The translations under genes and the position numbers were made by a program. A DNA stretch of 64,000 nucleotides from an uncultured Spirochaetota bacterium (GTDB lineage Bacteria; Spirochaetota; Spirochaetia; SZUA-6; Fen-1364): positions 224,001 to 288,000 of the forward strand of contig CAVUXE010000052.1 of the NCBI GenBank assembly GCA_963745235.1, written 5' to 3'. Under the pieces are notes generated by a model. It was given only the letters and a program-made list of their open reading frames with translations, did not search any database and was not told the origin of the DNA. This document shows, one piece after another, positions 47,234 to 57,612 of the stretch; positions within the stretch are counted from its first letter, which is position 1; each line of letters starts with the position of its first letter.

Positions 47234-48313
47234 TCAATGCGCGACGCTCGGGGAAGCTTCCGTGCTCTGGGCAATCCGCTGCATCAGTTTCTTCACATCC
47301 CCCTTTTTCGCCAGGGCCTCCATGGAAAGCATGAACGCCTTGAGATCACTGCCGCAGCGCTCCTGGAACCAGGAATGGAGGAGTGGCACGTCGTCCGTAT
47401 ACAGGCTGTACAGGGAAAGGTAGGCATTGTTGATGGGAAGATCGGCAATCCTGCTGTACCCGGGAGATCGGAACATGGTGCCGGCCTCCCCAGCAAGCCT
47501 CTTTCGAAACGCGTTGATGAGCTGGCTTTTCCGCTCCAGCTTGTATGCTCGCGGGATGGGAGAGTCGTAGACCTCCTCGAGAGACGCGTCGAGCTGTCTC
47601 AGCTTGGCGACGAACAGCTCAGAGTCAGCCTTCTCGTCCAGCGCGGATCGATATTCCGCGGATTGTTGTCCGTAGCGCCCAGCAATCCATTCCAGCGCAC
47701 CCGTTTCACCAACGAAGTCCGCGAGCTCCTCGTTGAAATCCGTCTGGCCCTTCACCCACAGGGTCGCGTGGGTCTGCTCGTGCATGATTGTGCTGGCCAG
47801 CTCGTAGGGGGAGTACTTCTTCATGAAAGAGTACACCGGGTCCCGGGTGAAGCCGAGAGTGCTGAAGGCATCCACCTTGCGGACGATCACGTCGTATCCC
47901 CGCTTCTTGAGGCCTTCGGCTTCAACCAGGGCATCCGCCCGCTCGTAAAAGCCCCTGTAGGGCAGCCGGCCGAGTACGGGGTAGCTCCACTGGTACGGGG
48001 TGAAGGAGACAGCATCACAGGCCTGGACCACGTCAACGAGGTAGTCCTTTTCGATGCTCTTGTAGCGGGTGTAGTTGCCGTTGTCCCGCAGCCCGATGCT
48101 CTCGACGGCAAAACGCCTGATCTCCTTCACCTCCTGGAGGAACCCGCGGACGTCGGGCGGCGTGGATGCGGTCTTGAGGAGGTCATCCACGCTTTCCGTG
48201 CCGTTGGAGTAGCGAAGGAGGTAGTTGCCCTGCTTCGCCAGGTAGCCCAGGTCGGAAACGCAGCCGGACAGGATGGAGATCAGGGTTGCAAGCACAGGCG
48301 CGGCGGCTTTCAT
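47234..48313 (-). CDS. Predicted zinc aminopeptidase lipoprotein (DUF2265-like)
   Basis: Lipobox ILSGC; PYRGFY, AFSTLG; HEQTH plus FNE gluzincin motif. Confidence 0.8.
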   Translation of the reverse strand: MKAAAPVLATLISILSGCVSDLGYLAKQGNYLLRYSNGTESVDDLLKTASTPPDVRGFLQEVKEIRRFAVESIGLRDNGNYTRYKSIEKDYLVDVVQACDAVSFTPYQWSYPVLGRLPYRGFYERADALVEAEGLKKRGYDVIVRKVDAFSTLGFTRDPVYSFMKKYSPYELASTIMHEQTHATLWVKGQTDFNEELADFVGETGALEWIAGRYGQQSAEYRSALDEKADSELFVAKLRQLDASLEEVYDSPIPRAYKLERKSQLINAFRKRLAGEAGTMFRSPGYSRIADLPINNAYLSLYSLYTDDVPLLHSWFQERCGSDLKAFMLSMEALAKKGDVKKLMQRIAQSTEASPSVAH

Positions 48314-48423
48314 GGCTTCCCCCCAAGGGTACAAGCGCCGCACTCACGTGTCCATTTGGCGTCTCTTCTCTGGACATTCTTTCCGGGATATTCTGTGAGA
48401 ACCCGGGGAAAGGAGGGACGCGC

Positions 48424-49539
48424 ATGGCGTCAGGAAAAAAGGTGCGGGTCGGAGTTGTCGGACTGGGCTTCGGCGCGGAGTTCGTGCCCCTTTACCAGAA
48501 GCACCCTGACGCGGAGTGCTTCGCGATCTGCCAGAGAGACAAGGCGAAAATGGACGCGGTGGGCGACATGTTCAAGGTGCAAAGGAGATACACCCGCTAC
48601 GAGGATCTCCTTGCGGACAGGGACGTGGACGCCATCCACGTGGTCACCCCCATTGCGTTGCACGCACCCATGACGATAGCAGCCCTGCACGCGGGGAAGC
48701 ACGCCTGCAGCACGGTGCCCATGGCGACAACGATCTCGGATTGCCTGAAGATCGCGGAGGCGCGAAAGAAAGCGGGCAAGGTATACATGATGATGGAGAC
48801 GGCCGTGTATACGCGCGAGTTCCTCTACGTCAGGGAGATGGCGGAGAAAGGGGAGCTCGGCAAGATCCAGTTCCTGCGAGGCTCGCACCAGCAGAACATG
48901 AGCCTTCCCGGTTGGCCGGACTACTGGTATGGCTTTCCGCCCATGCACTATGCCACCCACGCGGTCAGCCCGCTCCTCGCGCTGAGCGGCGGCCAGGCGG
49001 AATCCGTGGTGTGCTTCGGATCAGGGACCATCCGTGAAGAGTATGCAAGGCGCTACGGCTCACCCTTCGCAATCGAAACGGCCCTCGTGAAGCTCGCGGA
49101 CTCCGACCTGGCGTGCGAGGTTACCAGGTCCCTGTTCGACACCATCCGCCAATACCGCGAAAGCTTCGATGTCTACGGGACGAAGCTTTCTTTCGAGTGG
49201 GAGCAGCTCGCGGGGGAAAAGCCCGTGCTGTATTCAGGATACGAGGAGGCGAGGAGAGTGGACGTTCCTGATTTCGGCCACAGGCTCCCCGGGGAGATCG
49301 CACCGTACACGATCCATGGCGTCTATGATGATGAGCACGCGCATACTTCCTTCATCCAGGGCGCGGGTCATGGCGGGTCTCATCCGCACCTCGCCCACGA
49401 GTTCATCCGGGCCGTTGTCGAGGGACGGGAGTCCGCGGTGGACGCGCCGACGGCCGCCAACTGGACCATGACGGGCATTTGCGCTCACGAATCCGCCATG
49501 AAAGGCGGGAGGCGCATTGAGATCCCGCGCGTGAAGTAG
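48424..49539 (+). CDS. Gfo/Idh/MocA-family oxidoreductase
   Basis: VGLGFGAEF, TPIALH, GKHACSTVPMA, PPMHYATH, GHGGSHPHL. Confidence 0.9.
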   Translation: MASGKKVRVGVVGLGFGAEFVPLYQKHPDAECFAICQRDKAKMDAVGDMFKVQRRYTRYEDLLADRDVDAIHVVTPIALHAPMTIAALHAGKHACSTVPMATTISDCLKIAEARKKAGKVYMMMETAVYTREFLYVREMAEKGELGKIQFLRGSHQQNMSLPGWPDYWYGFPPMHYATHAVSPLLALSGGQAESVVCFGSGTIREEYARRYGSPFAIETALVKLADSDLACEVTRSLFDTIRQYRESFDVYGTKLSFEWEQLAGEKPVLYSGYEEARRVDVPDFGHRLPGEIAPYTIHGVYDDEHAHTSFIQGAGHGGSHPHLAHEFIRAVVEGRESAVDAPTAANWTMTGICAHESAMKGGRRIEIPRVK

Positions 49540-49661
49540 AGAGTCTGTTGCTTCCCTTGACATCTGAGAGAGAAAGTGCTTCTTGGAGATGCTGACCAGT
49601 TGGCCGTTTCCGGACCCGCCCCCTGGTGACACCGGCAGCATCGGAAACGTCAAGGGCATAG

Positions 49662-50600
49662 ATGGAATACAAGGACCTACCGCCGGGCGCGCCTGCAGAG
49701 CTCAGCAGCGCGTCCGCGGACAGCCTCGATCTGACGCTCGACCTGGGCGACCTTCCCCTCCTGGACCAGGTCAATGAAAGCTTTGATGATCTCATTGCGC
49801 GGGAGCAGTACCGAAACGGTCTTCTCGTGCAGCTGAAAAAGTGCAGGCTTGGGCTCCGCGAGGGCGGCACTCTTCGCCTCACCAACACGCGCCAGGGCGA
49901 CAATGATGTTTCCTATCTCGAGCGTCAGGAAATGCTCCTGCGGACGGCTGGCTTCACGGACGTCACGGTAGCCGCGGGGCCCCCGCTCCAGGTGGAGGCG
50001 GTCAGGAGGCCCGCCGTGGTGGAGGAGCAGGAATACGGGATGGTTGTACGCGAGATGGTCACGCCGGAAGAGATCGTGCGCGCCCACGAGTTCGCGAGGG
50101 AATACTACTTCTACAAGGACTACAACTACGATTACGAAGTGGCCAGGCAGTTCGACCTGAACTCCGACGTCTACGCCGTGACGGACAAGTCGGGAGAAAT
50201 GGTCGCTCTTGCCAAATGCGCGGTCCGCGCACCAGGCTACTATTGCCCGTTCATGTACGCTAATGTGGAGGACGGCAGCCATTTCCGGCTCCCCGACCAT
50301 TGGCGCCGCATCGGGGAAGTCATGGCTATCTATAAGGAAGGCAAGAGCGGGGTGGTTGCCTACAAGAGGCTGATGGAGTTTCTGACCCAGTACTCCTGCC
50401 ATATCGCGCGGGCCGACACCATCCTCACGACGTACGCCGTGAACGATCCCTACACCGGCAACTACTACAAGAGCAAGTTCAGGATGGAAGAGGCCGGGGC
50501 CACCCTGACGTACCGGGATTTCGGAGGCAAATGGATCCTTTTATGGACGAACAAAATCCTCGAGCTCGCAAAGCTGCACCGGGACTTGTTCAAAAAGTAA
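49662..50600 (+). CDS. Two-domain protein: degenerate methyltransferase-like N-terminus plus GNAT-like (acyl-amino-acid/autoinducer synthase-like) C-terminus
   Basis: LREGGTLRL and LLRTAGF resemble late MTase motifs; QFDLNSDVYAV, RIGEV and YYKSKF resemble FeeM/LuxI-type GNAT folds; function inferred. Confidence 0.55.
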   Translation: MEYKDLPPGAPAELSSASADSLDLTLDLGDLPLLDQVNESFDDLIAREQYRNGLLVQLKKCRLGLREGGTLRLTNTRQGDNDVSYLERQEMLLRTAGFTDVTVAAGPPLQVEAVRRPAVVEEQEYGMVVREMVTPEEIVRAHEFAREYYFYKDYNYDYEVARQFDLNSDVYAVTDKSGEMVALAKCAVRAPGYYCPFMYANVEDGSHFRLPDHWRRIGEVMAIYKEGKSGVVAYKRLMEFLTQYSCHIARADTILTTYAVNDPYTGNYYKSKFRMEEAGATLTYRDFGGKWILLWTNKILELAKLHRDLFKK

Positions 50601-52555
50601 GGGCCCTCCTCTTCGAGGGTCTCCCCCAGTCGCGGGAGCAGCGCGAGCAGTATCGACGCCAGCAGGCGGACTCCCTCACCCGGATAAACCGGGTCTTTGC
50701 CCTCGTCGGCGTGGCGGCCACGGCATACCTCATGCTCTTCAGTGACGCCACGACGTACCCGCAGTACGCGCATGCCATGTTCCAGGGCAGGATGTACACG
50801 ATCGTCGCCGCGACGATCATCGGCTTGTTGTCCTTTTTTCCCTTTGCCCGTCGTATCGGCATTCCATTGTCTTTCCTTCTCTTCGTGAGCGGCACGCTGC
50901 AGACAGCCCACCTCACGGCAGTGATGAACAATATTCCCGCTGACCTGACGGCGTGGGTCTACATCAACCTCATTTTCTGCGGCATCTACCCCCTGCCCGT
51001 CACGTATTCCTTCGTCGCAACGGTCATCGGCGTGGCCTATTACATCGTCGTCTACAGATTGAGCGGCTTCGTGCCGGACGTGGCTTTCCAGCAGACCCTG
51101 GTGAATATCGTGGTGCCGAGCCTCCTGGTGCTCGCGTTCAAAATCGGGATGGAGCGGATCCGAAAGAGGGAGTTCTATTTCCGGGTCGGCCTGCAGAAGG
51201 CCAACCAGGAGATTGCGGAGCTGAATGTGAAACTCGAAGACGAGAACCTGAGGCTGTCCCACGAGCTGGAGGTTGCCCAGCACATCCAGAGCATCGTGCT
51301 GCCGCAGGAAAGCGACTACCAGGCTTTCCGCGACCTGGAGATCTCCTGCCGCATGGTGCCGGCAACCGAGGTGGGAGGGGATTTCTACGACACCATCCAT
51401 TTCGGCCCCGAGGGGTTTCTTTCCATCGGGGACGTGACGGACCACGGCCTGCACTCCGGCCTCATCATGATGATGGTCCACACCGCCCTGCGAGCCTTGA
51501 GCAGGATAGAGCGCAACGACATCCAGCGGATCTACGGCGTGATCAACCGCCTGTTGTACGATTTCCGCCTCAAGACCCTGGACCACCGCATCATGTCGCT
51601 GATCATCCTCAGGTACCTGGGGGACGGCAACTTCATGATGACGGGTCAGCATGAGACCATCCTCATCCTCCACAAGGACGGCACCGTCCGGAACATCGAA
51701 TCCCTGGAGTACGGGATGTATGCCGGGCTTGACGCCAACGTGCTCCCCTACCTCAAGCTGTTCAACTTCCATCTCGACGAAGACGACGTCCTGATCCTCT
51801 ACACAGACGGCGTGACAGAAGCGCAGAACGGGCAGGGAGATGCCTTCGGGACAGCGGGAATCATCACCGCGGCAAGCCCTGTTCGCGGGTCATCCGCGGA
51901 GGCAATCCAGACAGCCATCGTGGAAGCCTGCCAGCAGCACATCGGCCAGGCGCGGCGTTTCGACGACATTTCGGTGGTCGTGGTGAAGAAGGTTGCCGAC
52001 AAGGGGTGGGACGGGCAGCTGCGCGGCACCGTTCACGTGGGGGATGCAATCGACCTCGACAGCGGAGTCGAAAGCGCCTTCAACGTGCGCTTTCTCCCCC
52101 TGGACATGTTTGACCACTGGCAACGAGGGAGCGTCCTCTCGGATTTCACCGCGGACTACTTCCGGCATAATTTCCCGTCGGAGGAACAGGCCGGGCTCAT
52201 ATCCACGGTGGTCAACGAGCTGGTGGAGAACGCGGTCAAGTTCAGCTCCAACAACTCGCTCCCCGTCGAGCTCATCCTCAGGAAGGCAAATGACAGGATG
52301 GTGGTGGAGATCACCAACACGCTGCCGCAGAACCGCACCCAGCCCTTCATGGCCACCTGTCGGGAGCTCTTCGAGAGCAACCTCGATGAGCTGTACGTCA
52401 AACGGATGGACCAGGGACGGACGGATCGCGAGTCATCAGGGCTCGGACTGCTCCTGATCAAGAAGGACTACAGCACCAAGCTCAGCTTTCAGTTCCGATT
52501 TGACGATGATGATACCGTCCAGGTGACGGTCGCAACAGAGCTGGCCTTCAAATGA
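50531..52555 (+). CDS. Membrane sensor-SpoIIE/PP2C phosphatase fused to an anti-sigma-type (HATPase) kinase domain
   Basis: About 6 TM helices, coiled coil, EVGGDFYD / IGDVTDHG / YTDGVTEA / DDISVV; C-terminal NELVENAVKF (N box) and SSGLGL (G2 box). Confidence 0.88.
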   Translation: MDPFMDEQNPRARKAAPGLVQKVRALLFEGLPQSREQREQYRRQQADSLTRINRVFALVGVAATAYLMLFSDATTYPQYAHAMFQGRMYTIVAATIIGLLSFFPFARRIGIPLSFLLFVSGTLQTAHLTAVMNNIPADLTAWVYINLIFCGIYPLPVTYSFVATVIGVAYYIVVYRLSGFVPDVAFQQTLVNIVVPSLLVLAFKIGMERIRKREFYFRVGLQKANQEIAELNVKLEDENLRLSHELEVAQHIQSIVLPQESDYQAFRDLEISCRMVPATEVGGDFYDTIHFGPEGFLSIGDVTDHGLHSGLIMMMVHTALRALSRIERNDIQRIYGVINRLLYDFRLKTLDHRIMSLIILRYLGDGNFMMTGQHETILILHKDGTVRNIESLEYGMYAGLDANVLPYLKLFNFHLDEDDVLILYTDGVTEAQNGQGDAFGTAGIITAASPVRGSSAEAIQTAIVEACQQHIGQARRFDDISVVVVKKVADKGWDGQLRGTVHVGDAIDLDSGVESAFNVRFLPLDMFDHWQRGSVLSDFTADYFRHNFPSEEQAGLISTVVNELVENAVKFSSNNSLPVELILRKANDRMVVEITNTLPQNRTQPFMATCRELFESNLDELYVKRMDQGRTDRESSGLGLLLIKKDYSTKLSFQFRFDDDDTVQVTVATELAFK

Positions 52556-52917
52556 CGGCGGGGTACGGGCAGATGGACGACAATACCAGGGAACCCTATT
52601 CGGTCAGGGTGACGCGTGACTTCTCTCGGATCGCTTTCACCGGGACGCTCCGGCTGCAAGGCAGGCCGGACTACGAGAAGATCCATCGCATGCTTCGCTA
52701 TGCGGCTCAGAGATCCGGGGAGAGCCTTGAGATCGACCTGCGTCAACTGCTTTTCCTGAACAGCTCTGGAATATCCACCTTCAGCCTTTTCATCATCGAG
52801 ATGCGGGAGATCGGAAAGAAGATTACCATCACGGGGAGCAAGGCAATCGCCTGGCAGAGCAAGTCCCTTGCAAACTTCCGGCGCCTGTACGACAAGGTCG
52901 TGGTCAACCTAGTGTAG
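52552..52917 (+). CDS. STAS-like partner-switching protein (resembles the cyanobacterial Slr1659 family)
   Basis: GTLRL, IDLRQLLFLNSSGI phosphoacceptor motif, WQSKSLANF; ATGA-coupled to the upstream gene. Confidence 0.85.
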   Translation: MTAGYGQMDDNTREPYSVRVTRDFSRIAFTGTLRLQGRPDYEKIHRMLRYAAQRSGESLEIDLRQLLFLNSSGISTFSLFIIEMREIGKKITITGSKAIAWQSKSLANFRRLYDKVVVNLV

Positions 52918-53910
52918 ACGACCGGGAGCGCCCCCCTCCGCCTCAATGAACCGCACGGCCTTCCTCAGATCTTCCAGGATGGACGACCTCTCAGCGGGAG
53001 TGGCCGAATCCGGCTCGTAGTAGAGCTGGCGCAGGAAGAACCCGTTCCCGAACTCGACGAACCTCGATTCCCCGGCGCCCGTTTCAGTCTTGATTCCAAC
53101 GATCTTGAAGACCTTGAGGGGATAGTGGATTCCGCGGACCTCGATCAGGCGCGGTCCCTCGACTTCCACGATGTCCTTGACCAGGGCGTAGGTGTACTCG
53201 CTGATGAATATCGAGTTGCGGTCGGCGATTTTTTCCAGGCGCGCCGCGATGTTCACCTGGCCCCCGATGATGGTGTAGTCCATCCTGGCTTCGGAGCCGA
53301 AGTTGCCGACTGTGCAGTAGCCGGTGTTGATCCCCATGCGCACGGCAAGGCCCTGGGAGGCCCCCACGGCAAGCCACTTGCTGCTCAGCAGCTTCACCTT
53401 CTCCAGCATCTCCACGGCCATGCGCACGCAGCGCTTGGCGTGCGTCTCGTCATCGATGAACTGGGGGTCACCGAAGAAAACGACAATGGCGTCCCCGATG
53501 AACTTGTCCACCGTTCCCCCGTAGATGCCCGCGATGGTGGACATCTCGGTGAGGTACTCGTTGAGAAGGGCGGACAGCGTCTCGGGCTCCAGGGTATCGG
53601 TCACCTCGGTGAAGCCCACGATGTCTGAAAAGAACATGGTGAGCTTCTGGCGCTTGTAGGAGAGCTCGGAGGTGAGCTTTCCCGTCTCGATGGAGTCGTA
53701 GACCTGGGAGGGCAGGTAGATCTTCATGAGGGCGAGCAGGCTGTTGATGCGCTGGTTTTTCTCCTCCAGCTCGTTCTCGATCATCGTTCCGTGCTCGATC
53801 GTGTTCTCGTACATGATCTGGAGATCACGCTGCCAGTTCTTGAGCTTTTCGATCTCCCGCCTCAGGTCCGCGATGTCGACGAAGCTCTCCTCCGGGGGAT
53901 TCTCTGTCAT
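52909..53910 (-). CDS. Class III adenylate cyclase with N-terminal coiled coil
   Basis: FSDIVGFT, DKFIGDA, GINTG, DYTIIGGQVNIAARLE; Lys/Thr specificity pair indicates ATP. Confidence 0.93.
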   Translation of the reverse strand: MTENPPEESFVDIADLRREIEKLKNWQRDLQIMYENTIEHGTMIENELEEKNQRINSLLALMKIYLPSQVYDSIETGKLTSELSYKRQKLTMFFSDIVGFTEVTDTLEPETLSALLNEYLTEMSTIAGIYGGTVDKFIGDAIVVFFGDPQFIDDETHAKRCVRMAVEMLEKVKLLSSKWLAVGASQGLAVRMGINTGYCTVGNFGSEARMDYTIIGGQVNIAARLEKIADRNSIFISEYTYALVKDIVEVEGPRLIEVRGIHYPLKVFKIVGIKTETGAGESRFVEFGNGFFLRQLYYEPDSATPAERSSILEDLRKAVRFIEAEGGAPGRLH

Positions 53911-53954
53911 GAGATCAATGTAACGGCAGAGGGAACGCGATGGAAGGTCCCGCT

Positions 53955-54341
53955 TCAGGCTTCCCCGCGGGAGCGCCGCGCGTCGATGTCATCCGGATAC
54001 GAGAGGGCTTCCCCTCCCCGCTCCCCCGTGCGGATGCGAAGGACATCTTCCACGGGGTAGATGAAGATGATTCCGTCCCCTTCCTTGCCCGTGCGGGCGG
54101 CCTTCATGATGGCGGCGACCGTGGTTTCGACGTTGCGCTCGCTGAGGATGATGTTCAGCTGGATCTTCGGGAGCATGTCTTTGTGCAGATAGGTATACCG
54201 CCAGGAGTGCTCCTGGCTGCCGAGCCTTCCGTGGCCGCGGATCTCGAAAACGTTCATTCCCACGATCCCGATGCCGGCCAGCGCCTCGCGAACGCCGTCA
54301 AGGGCCTCCTCCCTGATGATTGCCTCGATCTTTCGAAACAC
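53955..54341 (-). CDS. PII-family signalling protein with a divergent T-loop
   Basis: KIEAIIR, RGHGR, DMLPKI, ARTGKEGDGIIFIYPV, RIRTGERG. Confidence 0.92.
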   Translation of the reverse strand: MFRKIEAIIREEALDGVREALAGIGIVGMNVFEIRGHGRLGSQEHSWRYTYLHKDMLPKIQLNIILSERNVETTVAAIMKAARTGKEGDGIIFIYPVEDVLRIRTGERGGEALSYPDDIDARRSRGEA

Positions 54342-54518
54342 GCTTCTGTTCTCCTTTCACACAGAACGTGCACGAATACGGCCTCCTCTGCAACGGTCGG
54401 CCGGCGGCTCCGCGGGGAGGTCGGTATTCGCGCCATCTTGTCCTGTTCCATCTCTACCACGCGGAGCAGCGCGTGATGAATTTGATGGTGATCCAATTGT
54501 TTCCGAGGAGGATTGCCT

Positions 54519-55871
54519 ATGACCAAACGCGCTCTCTCGGTCGTGGCATGCGCCGCGGCCATCATGCTGCTGGGAGTGCTCCCCGCCGGCGCTGGCGGGC
54601 AGCCGGAAGCTTCCACGGGGCCGGTGACGCTGCAGTACGCGTTCTGGGGGGACCAGAACGAGATCAATGCCACCAACGCATACCTGAACGGGTACATGCA
54701 AAAGCACCCGAATGTGAAGATAGAGGCTCTCAACTTCGGCTCGAACACCGATTTCAATACCAAGATCACCACCCTTGCCGCAAGCAACACGCTTCCCGAC
54801 CTCGGGTACTTCTACGAGCCCAACGTGCTCACCTGGGGAATGAGCGGCAAGTTCGTTGACCTCACCGACTTCTACAAGAGCCAGCCGGCCAAGCTGGATG
54901 CCATCAAGTTCGTCACCCCGGACGGAAAGATCGTCGGGGTCAGCGTCGCGAACGAGGTCCAGGTGATCTGGTACAGCAGGAAGATGTTTGATGACGCCGG
55001 GCTCCCCTACCCGCCGGCGGAGGCGAGCAAGGCATGGAGCTGGGACAAGTTCGTGCAGGTGGCGAAGCAGCTGACCAAGGACGCGAACGGAAAGACACCC
55101 AACGATGCGGGCTTCGATCCGCAGAACATTCATCAGTTCGGGACATGGGTCCAGAACTGGTGGATGCCGTGGCTCACCTTCGCAATCAGCAACGGCGGAG
55201 GCCTCGTCAACGCTGACGGGACGAAACTGATCATGGACAGCCCCGGCACCATCGAGGCAATCCAGAAGATGGCTGATCTGGCGACGGTGGATCACGTGAG
55301 CCCCGCGCCCGGCACGCAGCAGATGCCCACCGCCGCGGCAACGGCGCTGCTCAGCCAGCAGGTGGCGATGGTGGTGGACGGGACCTGGGACCTTCTCACG
55401 CTGGGGATCACGAAGCAGCAGCAGGGCCTGGACTTCGGCGTCGGGGTGCTTCCCTCCATGAAGAACCTCGCCACCTCGTCCGTCGGGACGCCCATTGTGG
55501 TGTACAAGTCCTCCGCGCACATCCCCCAGGCGCTGGAGCTGCTGAAGTTCGTCATGAACCCGGAGAACTCGCTTCCCCTTGAGAAGAGCGGACTGTGGCT
55601 TCCGAACGAGAAACAGTGGTACACGGACCCGAAGCTCATTGCGGAGTGGACGGACAACCCTGTGCATCCGCCCGAGTACAGGACGGCGGTGGTGGATTTC
55701 GCCCTGAACTACTCGCACCGGCTGCCGCAGTACTATGTGCCGACCTTCTCGAAGATGGACGACGTCATTGAAGCAGCGCTTCAGCAGGTCTGGCTGGGCC
55801 AGAAGACGGCCGCGGACGTGATCAACAACGAGATCATGCCGAAGATCACGCCGATCTTCCAGGGAAAGTGA
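54519..55871 (+). CDS. Carbohydrate ABC transporter substrate-binding protein
   Basis: Signal peptide ending AGGQ; SBP family 1 motifs (LPDL, WYSRKMFDDAGL, WSWDKF, AMVVDGTW). Confidence 0.92.
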   Translation: MTKRALSVVACAAAIMLLGVLPAGAGGQPEASTGPVTLQYAFWGDQNEINATNAYLNGYMQKHPNVKIEALNFGSNTDFNTKITTLAASNTLPDLGYFYEPNVLTWGMSGKFVDLTDFYKSQPAKLDAIKFVTPDGKIVGVSVANEVQVIWYSRKMFDDAGLPYPPAEASKAWSWDKFVQVAKQLTKDANGKTPNDAGFDPQNIHQFGTWVQNWWMPWLTFAISNGGGLVNADGTKLIMDSPGTIEAIQKMADLATVDHVSPAPGTQQMPTAAATALLSQQVAMVVDGTWDLLTLGITKQQQGLDFGVGVLPSMKNLATSSVGTPIVVYKSSAHIPQALELLKFVMNPENSLPLEKSGLWLPNEKQWYTDPKLIAEWTDNPVHPPEYRTAVVDFALNYSHRLPQYYVPTFSKMDDVIEAALQQVWLGQKTAADVINNEIMPKITPIFQGK

Positions 55872-56782
55872 TTTCAGCGCGCAGGACCGCGCGTCGATGG
55901 ACAGCCCGTGAGGCAATCACGGGCTATCTCTTTGCCTCCCCCGTCATCCTGGGGCTCCTGATCTGGGTGATCGGGCCCATGATCGGGATCGTCTTCATCA
56001 GTCTCACGGACTGGAACGTCCTCAGCGTCCCCCGCCTGATCGGCCTCCGCAACTACATCCGCCTCTTCACCACGGACCTCTTCTTCCGCGGCTCCCTCGC
56101 GGTCACCTCGTATTTCGTGGTCGTGAACGTTGCGCTGACCATCCTCTACTCCCTCATCCTCGCCCTGCTGCTCAACCAGAAGATCCGGGGGCGCGGGATC
56201 TACCGAAGCATCTTCTATCTCCCGTCCATCCTCCCGGTCGTTGCGAGCAGCATCCTCTGGCTGTGGCTGTACAACCCGGACTTCGGGCTCTTCAACGATG
56301 TGCTGCGGGCCGTCGGGATCCGCAAATCCCTGTGGCTCGTCGGGCAGACGACCGTGGTCCCCTCCCTCGTCCTCATGTCCGTCTGGGGCGGCGCGGGCAA
56401 CACCATCGTCATCTTCCTGGCCGCGCTCCAGGGCGTCCCGCGGCAGCTCCTGGAGGCGGTTGAAATGGATGGAGGGAACTGGTTTCACAAGTTCTGGGCC
56501 ATCACGTGGCCCATGATCTCACCGGTCACGTTCTTCAACCTCGTGGTTGGTCTCATCAATTCTTTCCAGGTCTTCACGCAGATCTATATCATGACCAACG
56601 GCGGCCCGAACAACGCGAGCCTCTTCTATGTCTACCTGATGTACCGGGACGGTTTCCAGCGAAACGACATGGGAACGGCGGCGGCGTTGTCCCTGGCGCT
56701 CTTCCTGATCGTTTCCCTCCTCGGTTTGCTCCTCTTCCGCTGGTCGCGGCGCTGGGTGTACTACGGCGGGGAAGGCGCATGA
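55868..56782 (+). CDS. Carbohydrate ABC transporter permease (MalF-like)
   Basis: IGLRNY, RSIFYLP, EAA-like EAVEMDGG, TNGGP. Confidence 0.95.
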   Translation: MISARRTARRWTAREAITGYLFASPVILGLLIWVIGPMIGIVFISLTDWNVLSVPRLIGLRNYIRLFTTDLFFRGSLAVTSYFVVVNVALTILYSLILALLLNQKIRGRGIYRSIFYLPSILPVVASSILWLWLYNPDFGLFNDVLRAVGIRKSLWLVGQTTVVPSLVLMSVWGGAGNTIVIFLAALQGVPRQLLEAVEMDGGNWFHKFWAITWPMISPVTFFNLVVGLINSFQVFTQIYIMTNGGPNNASLFYVYLMYRDGFQRNDMGTAAALSLALFLIVSLLGLLLFRWSRRWVYYGGEGA

Positions 56783-57612
56783 GATCGGAACGGAGGCTGT
56801 GGCGCGTGCTGCTGTACTTCATCCTCACCCTCGGCGCCGCGCTTTGCCTTGTCCCGATCTTCTGGCTGGTGCGCAGCTCACTGATGACCCTCGTGGAGAT
56901 ATTCAAGTTCCCGCCCCTCGCGTGGCCCGCCATGATGCGCTGGGACAACTACGCAGGGGCAATGACCACCTTTCCCTTTCTCCTGTATTTCAGGAATACG
57001 CTGATCGTCGTGGTGCCCACGGTGCTCGCGTCCCTGGTGACCTCCAGCCTGTCGGCCTACGGACTGGCGAGGTTCCGTTTTCCGCTGCGAGGGTTCTGGT
57101 TCTCGCTCGTTGTGGGCGCCATCATCGTGCCGCCCGCCGTGGTCCTCATTCCGCAGTTCATCCTCTGGACTCGTCTTCACCTGGTCAACACCTTCTTTCC
57201 CCTGATCGTCCCTTACTGGTTCGGCGGCGGCGCGTTCAACGTGTTCCTCCTGCGCCAGTTCTTCATGACCGTGCCGAGAGACTTCGATGACGCGGCGAGG
57301 ATGGACGGCGCAACGTACTTCCGTGTTTTCCGCCAGATTCTGCTCCCGTTCATCCAGCCCGCCCTCATCGCCGTCGGCCTGTTTCAGTTCTTCTTCCAGT
57401 GGAACGATTTCTTCGGCCCCCTGATCTACCTCAACGACCCGCATACCTACACCCTGGCCGTCGGGCTGACGCACTTCATTGGCACATTCGCCACGCAATG
57501 GAACTACCTGATGGCGGCAACCGTCATCATCGTCGTCCCTCCCGTCATCGTATTCTTCGTCGGCCAGCGGTACTTCGTCGAGGGCATCACGCTGACAGGC
57601 ATCAAGATGTGA
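56779..57612 (+). CDS. Carbohydrate ABC transporter permease (MalG-like)
   Basis: FLLRQFF, DDAARMDGA, WNDFFGPL, QRYFVEGITLTGIK. Confidence 0.95.
   Translation: MRSERRLWRVLLYFILTLGAALCLVPIFWLVRSSLMTLVEIFKFPPLAWPAMMRWDNYAGAMTTFPFLLYFRNTLIVVVPTVLASLVTSSLSAYGLARFRFPLRGFWFSLVVGAIIVPPAVVLIPQFILWTRLHLVNTFFPLIVPYWFGGGAFNVFLLRQFFMTVPRDFDDAARMDGATYFRVFRQILLPFIQPALIAVGLFQFFFQWNDFFGPLIYLNDPHTYTLAVGLTHFIGTFATQWNYLMAATVIIVVPPVIVFFVGQRYFVEGITLTGIKM

Follow-up and report, generated by a model that had tools for sequence, protein, structure and literature searches.

A conserved bacterial signalling module in which a partner switch probably controls a class III adenylate cyclase

Introduction

The SiaABCD system of Pseudomonas aeruginosa is a known case of a partner switch that acts on a cyclase. 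According to two reports, the phosphorylation state of a small STAS-like protein is held in balance there by a kinase and a membrane PP2C phosphatase, and the unphosphorylated switch protein binds stalk motifs at the N-terminus of the cyclase and activates the dimeric enzyme (PMC7647112, PMC8457831). Here we analyse a locus of an uncultured Spirochaetota bacterium in which a comparable switch would act on a class III adenylate cyclase. The locus lies in a 64,000-nucleotide stretch of contig CAVUXE010000052.1, hereafter the window, and consists of four genes, which we refer to as genes 1 to 4, and a neighbouring PII gene (gene 5). An original prediction, made from the letters of the window, had read these five genes as an undescribed SiaABCD-like system with a putative signal synthase, a fused membrane phosphatase-kinase, a STAS switch, an adenylate cyclase and a PII protein; its overall interpretation is partly supported by the analysis presented here.

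The analogy with SiaABCD is borne out at the level of logic. In 19 of 23 loci a PP2C phosphatase, a kinase-like domain of the GHKL type, a STAS-like protein whose Ser-Ser loop is invariant and a nucleotide cyclase are encoded in synteny, and our complex model predicts the same docking site for gene 3 on gene 4. The components, on the other hand, differ. Gene 2 scores 19.6 against NF038263 (SiaA, cut-off 700) and 18.6 against NF038262 (SiaB family, cut-off 85), while gene 3 matches no SiaC-type family and the profile of its homologues (alignment A2) finds no SiaC chain in the PDB at an expect value (E) of 10 or less. Gene 4 is a class III cyclase that matches PF00211 only, whereas the output of SiaD is a GGDEF domain, and the phospho-acceptor here would be a serine where SiaC has Thr68. 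In the clade of the window the phosphatase and the kinase form one polypeptide, and an acyltransferase, or in the sister clusters a methyltransferase, is part of the module. The module is functionally SiaABCD-like and not a member of SiaABCD.

A second comparison is offered by the slr1658/slr1659 pair of Synechocystis, as the C-terminal domain of gene 2 and gene 3 pass the superfamily cut-offs of NF047703 and NF047705, respectively. By locus-tag order only, this pair also stands beside a nucleotide cyclase, Slr1657, which one report tabulates as 'XXX-GGDEF' with an uncharacterised N-terminus (PMC10124867). Neither a PP2C nor a gene 1 is reported there, and gene 2 falls below the cyanobacterial equivalog. 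Loss of slr1658 in Synechocystis is reported to de-repress pgr5 about a thousandfold through an unexplained chain of events. We found no mechanism for the slr1658/slr1659 superfamily in the literature searched, with subscription papers and supplements lying outside that search, and no bacterial system joining a STAS protein to a class III cyclase among the matches listed. The description of the system as 'undescribed' consequently holds for its mechanism, but not for its proteins, since NCBIfam superfamily models exist and the slr1658 mutant phenotype is on record for Synechocystis.

Other relatives share single elements with the locus. Rv1364c of M. tuberculosis, RsbU/RsbW/RsbV and SpoIIE/SpoIIAB/SpoIIAA likewise combine a PP2C phosphatase, a GHKL serine kinase and a STAS antagonist, and Rv1364c also fuses phosphatase and kinase. 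These systems act on sigma factors, whereas no sigma factor is linked to the locus and the predicted target is a cyclase. FeeM and LuxI provide the best structural matches to the C-terminal domain of gene 1, but gene 1 lacks sequence-level membership of either family and carries an additional truncated methyltransferase-like domain; a signal synthase gene next to a membrane receptor gene is a known arrangement of the LuxM/LuxN type. Finally, the catalytic core of CyaB (3r5g) is closely related to that of gene 4. The N-terminal domain of CyaB is membrane-bound, whereas gene 4 is soluble and has a 58-residue N-terminal segment with a stalk motif and a conserved C-terminal extension.

Results

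A four-gene module is kept across phyla

The source genome (5.85 Mb, 104 contigs, 85.7% complete) has uncultured Spirochaetota metagenome-assembled genomes (MAGs) as its nearest named relatives. All five predicted open reading frames (ORFs) were recovered from the ORF list at their exact positions. Gene 1 (49662-50600, plus strand) encodes a two-domain protein of 312 amino acids from a rare, unnamed family, and gene 2 (50531-52555, plus strand) a protein of 674 amino acids with a membrane domain, a coiled coil, a PP2C phosphatase and an slr1658-type GHKL domain. Gene 3 (52552-52917, plus strand) encodes a single-domain STAS-like switch protein of the slr1659 superfamily, of 121 amino acids or 114 if read from Met8, and gene 4 (52909-53910, minus strand) a soluble class III adenylate cyclase of 333 amino acids with conserved N- and C-terminal extensions. 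The domain content found with Pfam and NCBIfam, namely SpoIIE/PP2C with a HATPase-like C-terminus, a weak STAS, Guanylate_cyc and P-II, agrees with the one first proposed.

The genes are tightly packed. The 70-nucleotide overlap of genes 1 and 2 follows from the ORF coordinates, and the ATGA overlap of genes 2 and 3 can be read directly at 52552-52555. Genes 3 and 4 converge and their ORFs overlap by 9 nucleotides, but the stop codons, which had been described as overlapping, are themselves 3 nucleotides apart (TAG at 52915-52917 on the plus strand for gene 3; TAG, read from cta, at 52909-52911 on the minus strand for gene 4). The G+C content is even over the region (0.59-0.62). Promoter-like and terminator-like sites between 49300 and 54700 are no commoner than in shuffled sequences, so the operon structure is drawn from overlaps and spacing only.

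To place the locus in a wider context, an alignment of gene 1 was scanned against one genome per species, which gave 23 loci (designated by L numbers), and their neighbouring genes were identified by tblastn. The loci are mostly from Spirochaetota, with others from Polyangia/Myxococcales, KSB1 and unclassified MAGs; counts over related genomes are not independent. A PP2C gene directly follows gene 1 in every one of the 23 loci, and HATPase and STAS genes are also seen in 21, the shortfall being due to L020, where the contig ends inside the PP2C gene, and L027, which is degraded and gave no STAS match. A class III cyclase is found in 19 of the 23 loci (19 of 22 assessable); in 17 of them its gene is convergent with the others, while the two Myxococcota loci (L017 and L022) have it on the same strand. 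This gene order is repeated in genomes of Spirochaetota, Myxococcota and KSB1, which goes far beyond what chance would produce. The proposed co-occurrence of five genes thus proved right for four, which form a module kept across phyla, but not for PII, present in 2 of the 23 loci only. We conclude that the locus represents a conserved bacterial signalling module, so far uncharacterised, whose cyclic AMP (cAMP)-making enzyme is probably under the control of a phosphatase in the membrane, a domain resembling kinases and a small switch protein.

Some loci show further rearrangements. In L012 and L025 the PP2C-HATPase-STAS trio is tandemly duplicated after gene 1, whereas in L023 the additional genes are another gene 1 paralogue and another HATPase. 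All three loci are preceded by UvrD-type helicase genes.

The switch protein is predicted to dock on the cyclase stalk

The catalytic domain of gene 4 (residues 86-260; 53131..53655, minus strand) matches PF00211 (Guanylate_cyc) with 92.5 bits, and residues 83-276 align without gaps to CyaB of P. aeruginosa (3r5g, E 2.4e-59). Residues D96, D140, K136, T213, N220 and R224 are invariant in 18 sequences, and we take these to be the two metal-binding aspartates, the adenine-specifying Lys and Thr, and the transition-state Asn and Arg. With the expected residues present and a core so close to CyaB, the assignment of gene 4 as an adenylate cyclase is upheld: judged by its sequence it is a class III adenylate cyclase, and its product would be cAMP. 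N-terminal to this core lies a stalk-helix motif (residues 24-58; 53737..53841, minus strand) in which D29, H40, L48 and N52 are invariant and E45 is nearly so. This motif is the predicted docking site for the STAS protein.

Gene 3 scores above the cut-off of 100 for NF047705, the slr1659 superfamily (105.6 bits over residues 13-116; 105.1 in the genome search), and below that of TIGR00377 (14.3 versus 53.45 bits). Its other rows at E<=0.1 are STAS, STAS_2, FitA-like, slr1659, MlaB and ant_ant_sig. Two starts are conceivable. The ATGA overlap corresponds to Met1 at 52552, which L005 and L006 share; the alternative Met8 at 52573 would give 114 amino acids, with 15 of 17 homologues in alignment A2 measuring 113-118 amino acids. 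A notable feature of gene 3 is the loop F68-L-N-S71-S72-G-I-S75 (52753..52776, plus strand), a candidate phospho-acceptor and part of the predicted cyclase-docking surface. Within the 18 sequences of alignment A2, F68, L69, N70, S71, S72, G73 and S75 are invariant and I74 is nearly so, and the Ser loop is identical in 24 of 25 sequences. The exception is an orphan paralogue (L028, G000:C19:2566-2910, minus strand) of 114 amino acids, 60% identical to gene 3, in which the second loop Ser is replaced by Ile. It lies on a 5.9-kb contig among transposase-like ORFs, without partner genes, and we regard it as uninformative.

We then modelled the complex of two cyclase and two STAS chains, each with an 18-row alignment, in three runs accompanied by three controls. 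The scores of 0.84, 0.84 and 0.83, against 0.00 for the best of the three controls, can be set beside a mark that 58 of 80 solved complexes attain and that 2 of 110 mismatched pairs attain as well. The runs share at least 98% of their contacts, and the predicted local distance difference test score (pLDDT) of the partner is 86. In the predicted interface, cyclase residues 29-50 lie against STAS residues 32-38, 68-75, 78-82 and 100-112, a surface that holds most of the invariant STAS residues. Binding of the STAS protein to the N-terminal helix of the cyclase, which had been suggested by analogy with SiaC, is therefore what the complex model gives.

The stalk could also be followed beyond the loci of gene 1. 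A hidden Markov model (HMM) of the 35-residue segment from 19 class III cyclases was searched against 3970 stop-to-stop ORFs from the window and the loci. After the training set it ranked the cyclases of L059 (E 3.6e-9) and L071 (E 3.8e-9), followed by the GGDEF proteins of L062 (E 4.4e-4), L066 (E 0.016) and L070 (E 0.034), with the following match at E 3.5. This ranking points to one docking motif that would be common to class III and GGDEF cyclases, two unrelated cyclase classes.

Gene 2 joins a membrane phosphatase to a kinase-like domain

The polytopic membrane region of gene 2 (residues ~52-205; 50684..51145, plus strand) has four clear hydropathy peaks on the Kyte-Doolittle scale, or about six helices by eye, joined by short loops, and it matches no Pfam sensor family. 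A coiled-coil linker connects it to the PP2C/SpoIIE domain (residues 297-486; 51419..51988, plus strand), which scores 95.3 bits against PF07228 (cut-off 25). The metal-binding Asp motifs of the phosphatase are present, as judged by eye only, and its sole solved sequence relative is Rv1364c (3ke6, E 7.4e-5). The C-terminal domain (residues 513-670; 52067..52540, plus strand) is an anti-sigma-kinase-like GHKL domain of the slr1658 superfamily, with 122.3 bits against NF047703 (cut-off 100) and 84 bits against the cyanobacterial equivalog NF052618 (cut-off 200). It narrowly exceeds the cut-off of the HATPase family PF13581 (29.1 versus 27.4) and stays below that of PF02518 (24.5 versus 26.4). 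Its N-box Glu/Asn and its G2 Ser-Gly motif are conserved, the N, G1 and G2 boxes being placed where we take them to lie in GHKL domains.

The union of phosphatase and kinase in one polypeptide is correct for the clade of the window (L005-L011), where no internal stop interrupts the frame, but elsewhere the two are separate genes. They are fused in 7 of 22 assessable loci and separate in the other 15, and an in-frame stop at the junction is seen in six loci (L016, L017, L019, L022, L024 and L025). These stops and separate genes outside L005-L011 rule out the fusion as a general feature of the module; it is a derived trait of the window's clade. A fusion, in one clade, of parts that are separate genes in the other loci speaks for the phosphatase and the kinase-like domain being functionally linked.

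Sister clusters use either class of cyclase

At E<=1e-10, NF047705 finds matches in 96 of the 401 Spirochaetota genomes searched; 56 of these exceed the cut-off, and the matches are concentrated in one family (52 of 75). In the 30 best loci an slr1658-type gene is always adjacent. Outside Spirochaetota, members of the family are present in Cyanobacteria, Myxococcota and KSB1. Sister modules were examined in longer stretches of 14 loci, where much the same set of parts returns. The gene order in L062 is GGDEF, methyltransferase, PP2C, HATPase and STAS, and L066 and L070 have the same order with a REC-GGDEF protein in first place. L071 contains a class III cyclase (47% identical to gene 4), a HATPase, a STAS-methyltransferase fusion and a dCache-HAMP-PP2C protein; the fusion (L071:2966-4135, minus strand), placed between the cyclase and HATPase genes on one side and the PP2C gene on the other, is an ORF of 389 amino acids that joins an slr1659-type STAS to an S-adenosylmethionine (SAM) methyltransferase domain. 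The proposed output of cAMP in place of cyclic di-GMP accordingly fits the class III cyclase found here, but it describes one branch only, as the sister modules of L062, L066 and L070 use GGDEF.

Methyltransferases accompany the slr1658/slr1659 pair in L059, L061, L062, L066 and L070. The L059 cluster (L059:3602-9687; genome G252, family f20) begins with a methyltransferase, a HATPase and a STAS gene and continues with a divergently transcribed gene for a 388-amino-acid fusion of a FeeM-family GNAT to a cyclic nucleotide monophosphate (cNMP)-binding domain, a membrane PP2C, a class III cyclase and a second HATPase. Two slr1658-type genes are thus present in this cluster, and its cyclase is 46% identical to gene 4, stalk included. 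The fusion protein, encoded between the STAS and PP2C genes, scores 42.8 bits for Pfam FeeM and 63.4 bits for cNMP binding. One genus offers 28 loci for comparison: 19 have both the FeeM-cNMP gene and the methyltransferase intact, 8 have lost the two or retain remnants of them, and in no locus is one intact without the other. The PP2C is kept wherever the fetched stretch reaches it. These genomes are closely related, so the losses are not independent events. Together with the PilZ domains of gene 1 relatives described below, this pattern is suggestive of a pair of enzymes gated by a second messenger. We considered whether gene 1 is homologous to either the FeeM-cNMP protein or the methyltransferase of L059 and rejected this, as BLASTP found no similarity; the parallel with the L059 enzyme is therefore one of fold and context only.

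A different setting was seen in family f41 (L063-L069). Here slr1659-like genes stand beside a small HTH_3 protein, scanned in L063, with ORFs of similar size in L064, L065, L067, L068 and L069, and further neighbours are a REC-GGDEF protein (L064) or a beta-CASP/RMMBL ribonuclease (L065, L068). No slr1658-type neighbour was found in the f41 loci by tblastn, and they may represent another use of the STAS-like protein.

Gene 1 resembles FeeM in structure

Gene 1 matches no Pfam or NCBIfam family at E<=0.1. None of its 80 homologues is informatively named, those with a name all being 'hypothetical protein', and the family is rare, with 50 representative clusters at E<=1e-3 among 1.84 billion. 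The full-length AlphaFold model is confident (pLDDT 91.4; predicted template modelling score 0.88) and divides into two domains. The N-terminal domain (residues 19-122; 49716..50027, plus strand) has a truncated class I methyltransferase-like fold. Modelled alone it reaches a pLDDT of 71.4; its top Foldseek matches are all SAM methyltransferases (E 3e-4 to 1e-2), and all 50 rows listed by the VIA structure comparison fall on methyltransferases or methyltransferase-like domains (Z 6.1-7.8), mostly over the later part of the target chain. In our reading of alignment A4 the glycine-rich SAM loop is lost, and the domain is probably a truncated, non-catalytic remnant. It echoes the true methyltransferases of the sister clusters. 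Common descent with these was tried and not confirmed (hhalign probability 8%).

The C-terminal domain (residues 124-305; 50031..50576, plus strand) has a GNAT fold nearest to the N-acyl amino acid synthase FeeM and the N-acyl-homoserine lactone (AHL) synthases. The best VIA match is FeeM (2g0b) with Z 16.9 and a root-mean-square deviation of 2.6 over 167 amino acids, which is 2.8 Z above the next GNAT (14.1), and Foldseek also finds FeeM (E 2.3e-6). E219 and G230 are invariant in 32 sequences. The AHL synthases RpaI (13.8), LasI (13.1), MesI (12.8) and TofI (12.8) lie not above generic GNATs (13-14), so gene 1 does not qualify as a LuxI-type protein. The putative signal-synthase fold assigned to gene 1 is in this way recovered by both structure searches, and the protein, as modelled, resembles FeeM structurally without belonging to its sequence family. 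The Pfam FeeM model (PF21926) finds nothing at E<=0.01 in the whole source genome, which is 85.7% complete.

The relatives of gene 1 occur in several settings. A PilZ domain stands at the N-terminus in 6 of 10 distant relatives scanned, from Atribacterota and Omnitrophota MAGs, and also in L073, while gene 1 of the window itself has neither a PilZ nor a cNMP domain in Pfam. Nine metagenome loci have a gene 1-like gene with no partner switch next to it. In L073, L075 and L078 the gene that directly follows encodes a HisKA_7TM histidine kinase of about 690 amino acids, as verified with Pfam; an equally long ORF takes this place in L074, L077 and L079, and L076 has a HisKA_7TM neighbour. FadL/TodX outer-membrane channels are encoded upstream in L075 and L076, receiver proteins are found near these pairs, and a methyltransferase follows in L081. 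The gene 1 relatives and HisKA_7TM kinases of L073-L079 may form a separate acyltransferase-sensor system. As a further observation, a gene 1 relative of 361 amino acids (P0100) belongs to a 699-member Microcystis cluster, all annotated as hypothetical, and the Atlas places gene 1 nearest a mainly cyanobacterial cluster of 361 amino acids (score 0.94).

Since some relatives carry PilZ and others stand upstream of different membrane sensors, gene 1 may act as input, output or both. The PilZ-fused relatives and the analogous FeeM-cNMP fusion suggest that its family can be a target of second messengers, while its constant position upstream of membrane sensors favours a product that feeds the sensor.

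The PII gene and the flanks

The PII gene (53955-54341, minus strand) encodes a divergent GlnB/K-type protein of 128 amino acids, 44 nucleotides upstream of the cyclase start on the same strand. It scores 91 bits against PF00543 (cut-off 25) and stays below both equivalogs (101.1 versus 202 and 77.2 versus 181). The protein aligns without gaps to Aquifex GlnB (2eg1, E 1.1e-27), has a C-terminal tail of 16 amino acids, and carries Trp at the position that we take to be that of Tyr51 and Ile at the presumed Lys90. A role as the module's link to energy or nitrogen status, as first proposed, finds no backing in the distribution of the gene, which is confined to L005 and L006. PII was rejected as a component because it occurs in no more than 2 of the 23 loci and is, though divergent, a GlnB/K-type protein of the usual kind; it is a lineage-specific neighbour, apparently recent and co-transcribed with the cyclase in this clade only.

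An oxidoreductase-like gene lies upstream of the locus (48286-49539, plus strand), and a sugar-type ABC transporter-like set with a binding protein and two permeases lies downstream (54513-57612, plus strand), both identified by eye only. Neither flank recurs in the related loci by tblastn, and the flanking genes are thus probably unrelated to the module.

Discussion

We consider it likely that a partner-switching module is encoded here, by which a class III adenylate cyclase is regulated. Our results proper are the genes present and their synteny, the protein families to which they belong, the residues that are conserved and the scores of the models. The mechanism that we infer goes beyond these and is to be read conditionally as to the kinase activity and its phosphosite, as to which way the cyclase is regulated and which nucleotide it makes, and as to the product of gene 1 and every binding event. 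The slr1658-type GHKL domain of gene 2 would phosphorylate gene 3 on Ser71 (or Ser72), the PP2C domain would strip the phosphate from it, and the polytopic membrane domain would set the balance between the two activities. Unphosphorylated STAS protein would dock through its Ser loop on the conserved helical motif of the stalk in the dimeric cyclase, with a 2:2 stoichiometry in the model, and alter cAMP synthesis, the direction by analogy with SiaC-SiaD being activation. A phosphate on Ser71 would face the acidic cyclase helix, which suggests that phosphorylation, by adding charge in the interface beside the conserved Glu45, would release the STAS protein. The module is one branch of a wider family that combines a PP2C with slr1658-type and slr1659-type proteins, usually with a SAM methyltransferase, and has either a class III or a GGDEF output with the same stalk motif. 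Gene 1 is a branch-specific partner, probably making a lipid of the N-acyl-amino-acid type, and in the relatives that bear PilZ or cNMP domains the second messenger may gate the synthase and so close a feedback loop.

How far gene 1 belongs to the signalling circuit is a separate matter. That its product is sensed by the adjacent membrane domain in the window is a reading we hold only tentatively, at somewhat less than an even chance. The HisKA_7TM and the PilZ/cNMP observations would both make sense if the adjacent sensor read the product of the synthase and if, in some lineages, the second messenger gated that enzyme. Three results weigh against it: gene 1 has no match at E<=0.1 to the Pfam FeeM model (PF21926) or to the autoinducer-synthase models, an effector would suit the PilZ and cNMP fusions as well as a signal synthase does, and a common origin of the gene 2 membrane domain and HisKA_7TM was rejected (hhalign probability 0.3%). 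The fuller version in the original prediction, in which gene 1 makes the ligand for the gene 2 sensor in a quorum-sensing-like loop and PII is an integral part that couples the module to energy or nitrogen status, seems to us rather unlikely. It draws on the FeeM/AHL-synthase-like fold, on the place of gene 1 immediately upstream of the membrane sensor in 23 of 23 loci, on the distant relatives that precede HisKA_7TM sensors, with FadL/TodX channels in L075 and L076, on a gene 2 sensor that is membrane-only with short loops, and on a PII gene 44 nucleotides upstream of the cyclase on the same strand. However, PII accompanies the module in no more than 2 of the 23 loci, L059 and L071 have the core module but lack gene 1, and the sensor membrane domains of the two contexts are unrelated.

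Gene 1 could instead be an output of the module, a lipid or protein acyltransferase controlled by the second messenger or by the switch. cAMP-regulated GNAT protein acetyltransferases offer a precedent, and the N-terminal PilZ domains of the distant relatives (6 of 10, and L073) are consistent with such a role, as is the FeeM-GNAT-cNMP fusion of L059, which lies between STAS and PP2C and is kept or lost jointly with the methyltransferase. We nonetheless think this unlikely, as gene 1 of the window has no PilZ or cNMP domain and no BLASTP similarity to the L059 enzyme, and there is no obvious reason for an effector gene to stand always just upstream of a sensor gene.

Turning back to control of the cyclase by the partner switch, several observations weigh against it. 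Gene 3 is below the cut-off of Pfam STAS (PF01740, 16.4 versus 22.6 bits), and the profile of 18 gene 3 homologues finds solved anti-sigma antagonists only weakly (E 0.12-1.4); it is in these same weak alignments that the loop Ser aligns with the D-S-x-G serine of antagonists such as TM1442. The complex job, with its 2+2 chains and their own alignments, differs from the score calibration, and a solved SiaC-SiaD complex exists, to which the score may be partly due. The GGDEF matches of the stalk HMM are individually weak, and the stalk-less REC-GGDEF protein of L064 is not matched by it. Matches to the class III cyclase domain number 21 in the source genome and those to the cNMP-binding domain 20, a repertoire unusually rich in cAMP signalling for a genome of 5.8 Mb, and none of the latter is in the module. 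L012, L023 and L025 contain gene 1 and duplicated switches with no cyclase within 8 kb, and their genomes have no short stalk-bearing cyclase. The best cyclase matches there start at model position 54-59 in open frames of 945-1005 amino acids; with only such large, multidomain and stalk-less cyclases found, a cyclase elsewhere in these genomes was rejected as the missing output, and no other output gene was found near the three loci. Lastly, in 17 sequences that span both cyclase classes, the slr1658-type domain has an invariant Asn at the expected G1-box Asp and no Gly-x-Gly.

With this non-canonical G1 box the GHKL domain may bind without phosphorylating, and its kinase activity is not secure. 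The slr1658-type domain could accordingly be a non-catalytic binder that sequesters the STAS protein without a phosphorylation cycle, or another kinase could act on the STAS protein. There is no solved relative of the domain below E 0.5, the sole hint that Asn is tolerated at G1 is a weak VanS alignment (E 0.62), and the Pfam HATPase scores are near or below the cut-offs. Against this stand the conserved N-box Glu/Asn and G2 Ser-Gly, together with a PP2C that is always present and a Ser-Ser loop kept in 24 of 25 sequences, which would be hard to explain without phosphorylation, and we consider a non-catalytic domain improbable. That the switch targets a sigma factor, a methyltransferase or gene 1, with the cyclase merely a frequent neighbour, is very improbable in spite of the three loci without a cyclase, the methyltransferases beside the pair in L059, L061, L062, L066 and L070 or fused to STAS in L071, and the f41 genes beside HTH_3 proteins or beta-CASP RNases, as 19 of the 22 loci that could be assessed have a cyclase, the complex model outscores its controls and the stalk motif is common to both cyclase classes.

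A bolder extension of the partner-switch mechanism would be a new lipid autoinducer circuit, in which a FeeM-like synthase and a methyltransferase produce a membrane-soluble signal (possibly an N-acyl amino acid methyl ester), the polytopic domain of an adjacent sensor-phosphatase, or a 7TM histidine kinase in other phyla, reads it, a cyclase-agnostic STAS switch docking on the stalk motif of both cyclase classes relays it to the synthesis of cAMP or cyclic di-GMP, and PilZ or cNMP feedback on the synthase operates in many lineages. We regard this as speculative and, on balance, quite unlikely. If true, it would give a mechanism for the Slr1658 pathway of Synechocystis and would provide candidate genes for the synthesis of N-acyl alanine methyl esters, for which one report knows of no genes (PMC11580390).

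The significance of the module itself does not depend on such a circuit. Partner switches are textbook regulators of sigma factors. The SiaABCD reports establish that a partner switch can also drive a diguanylate cyclase (PMC7647112, PMC8457831). The locus described here suggests that a class III adenylate cyclase is driven by the same switch logic with parts drawn from other protein families, and that one slr1658/slr1659-type switch family serves both cyclase classes through a common stalk motif. It offers testable predictions for the phosphosite, the docking helix, the cAMP output and the product of gene 1. It also offers a hypothesis for the slr1658 phenotype of Synechocystis and a possible new type of signal synthase/receptor pair.

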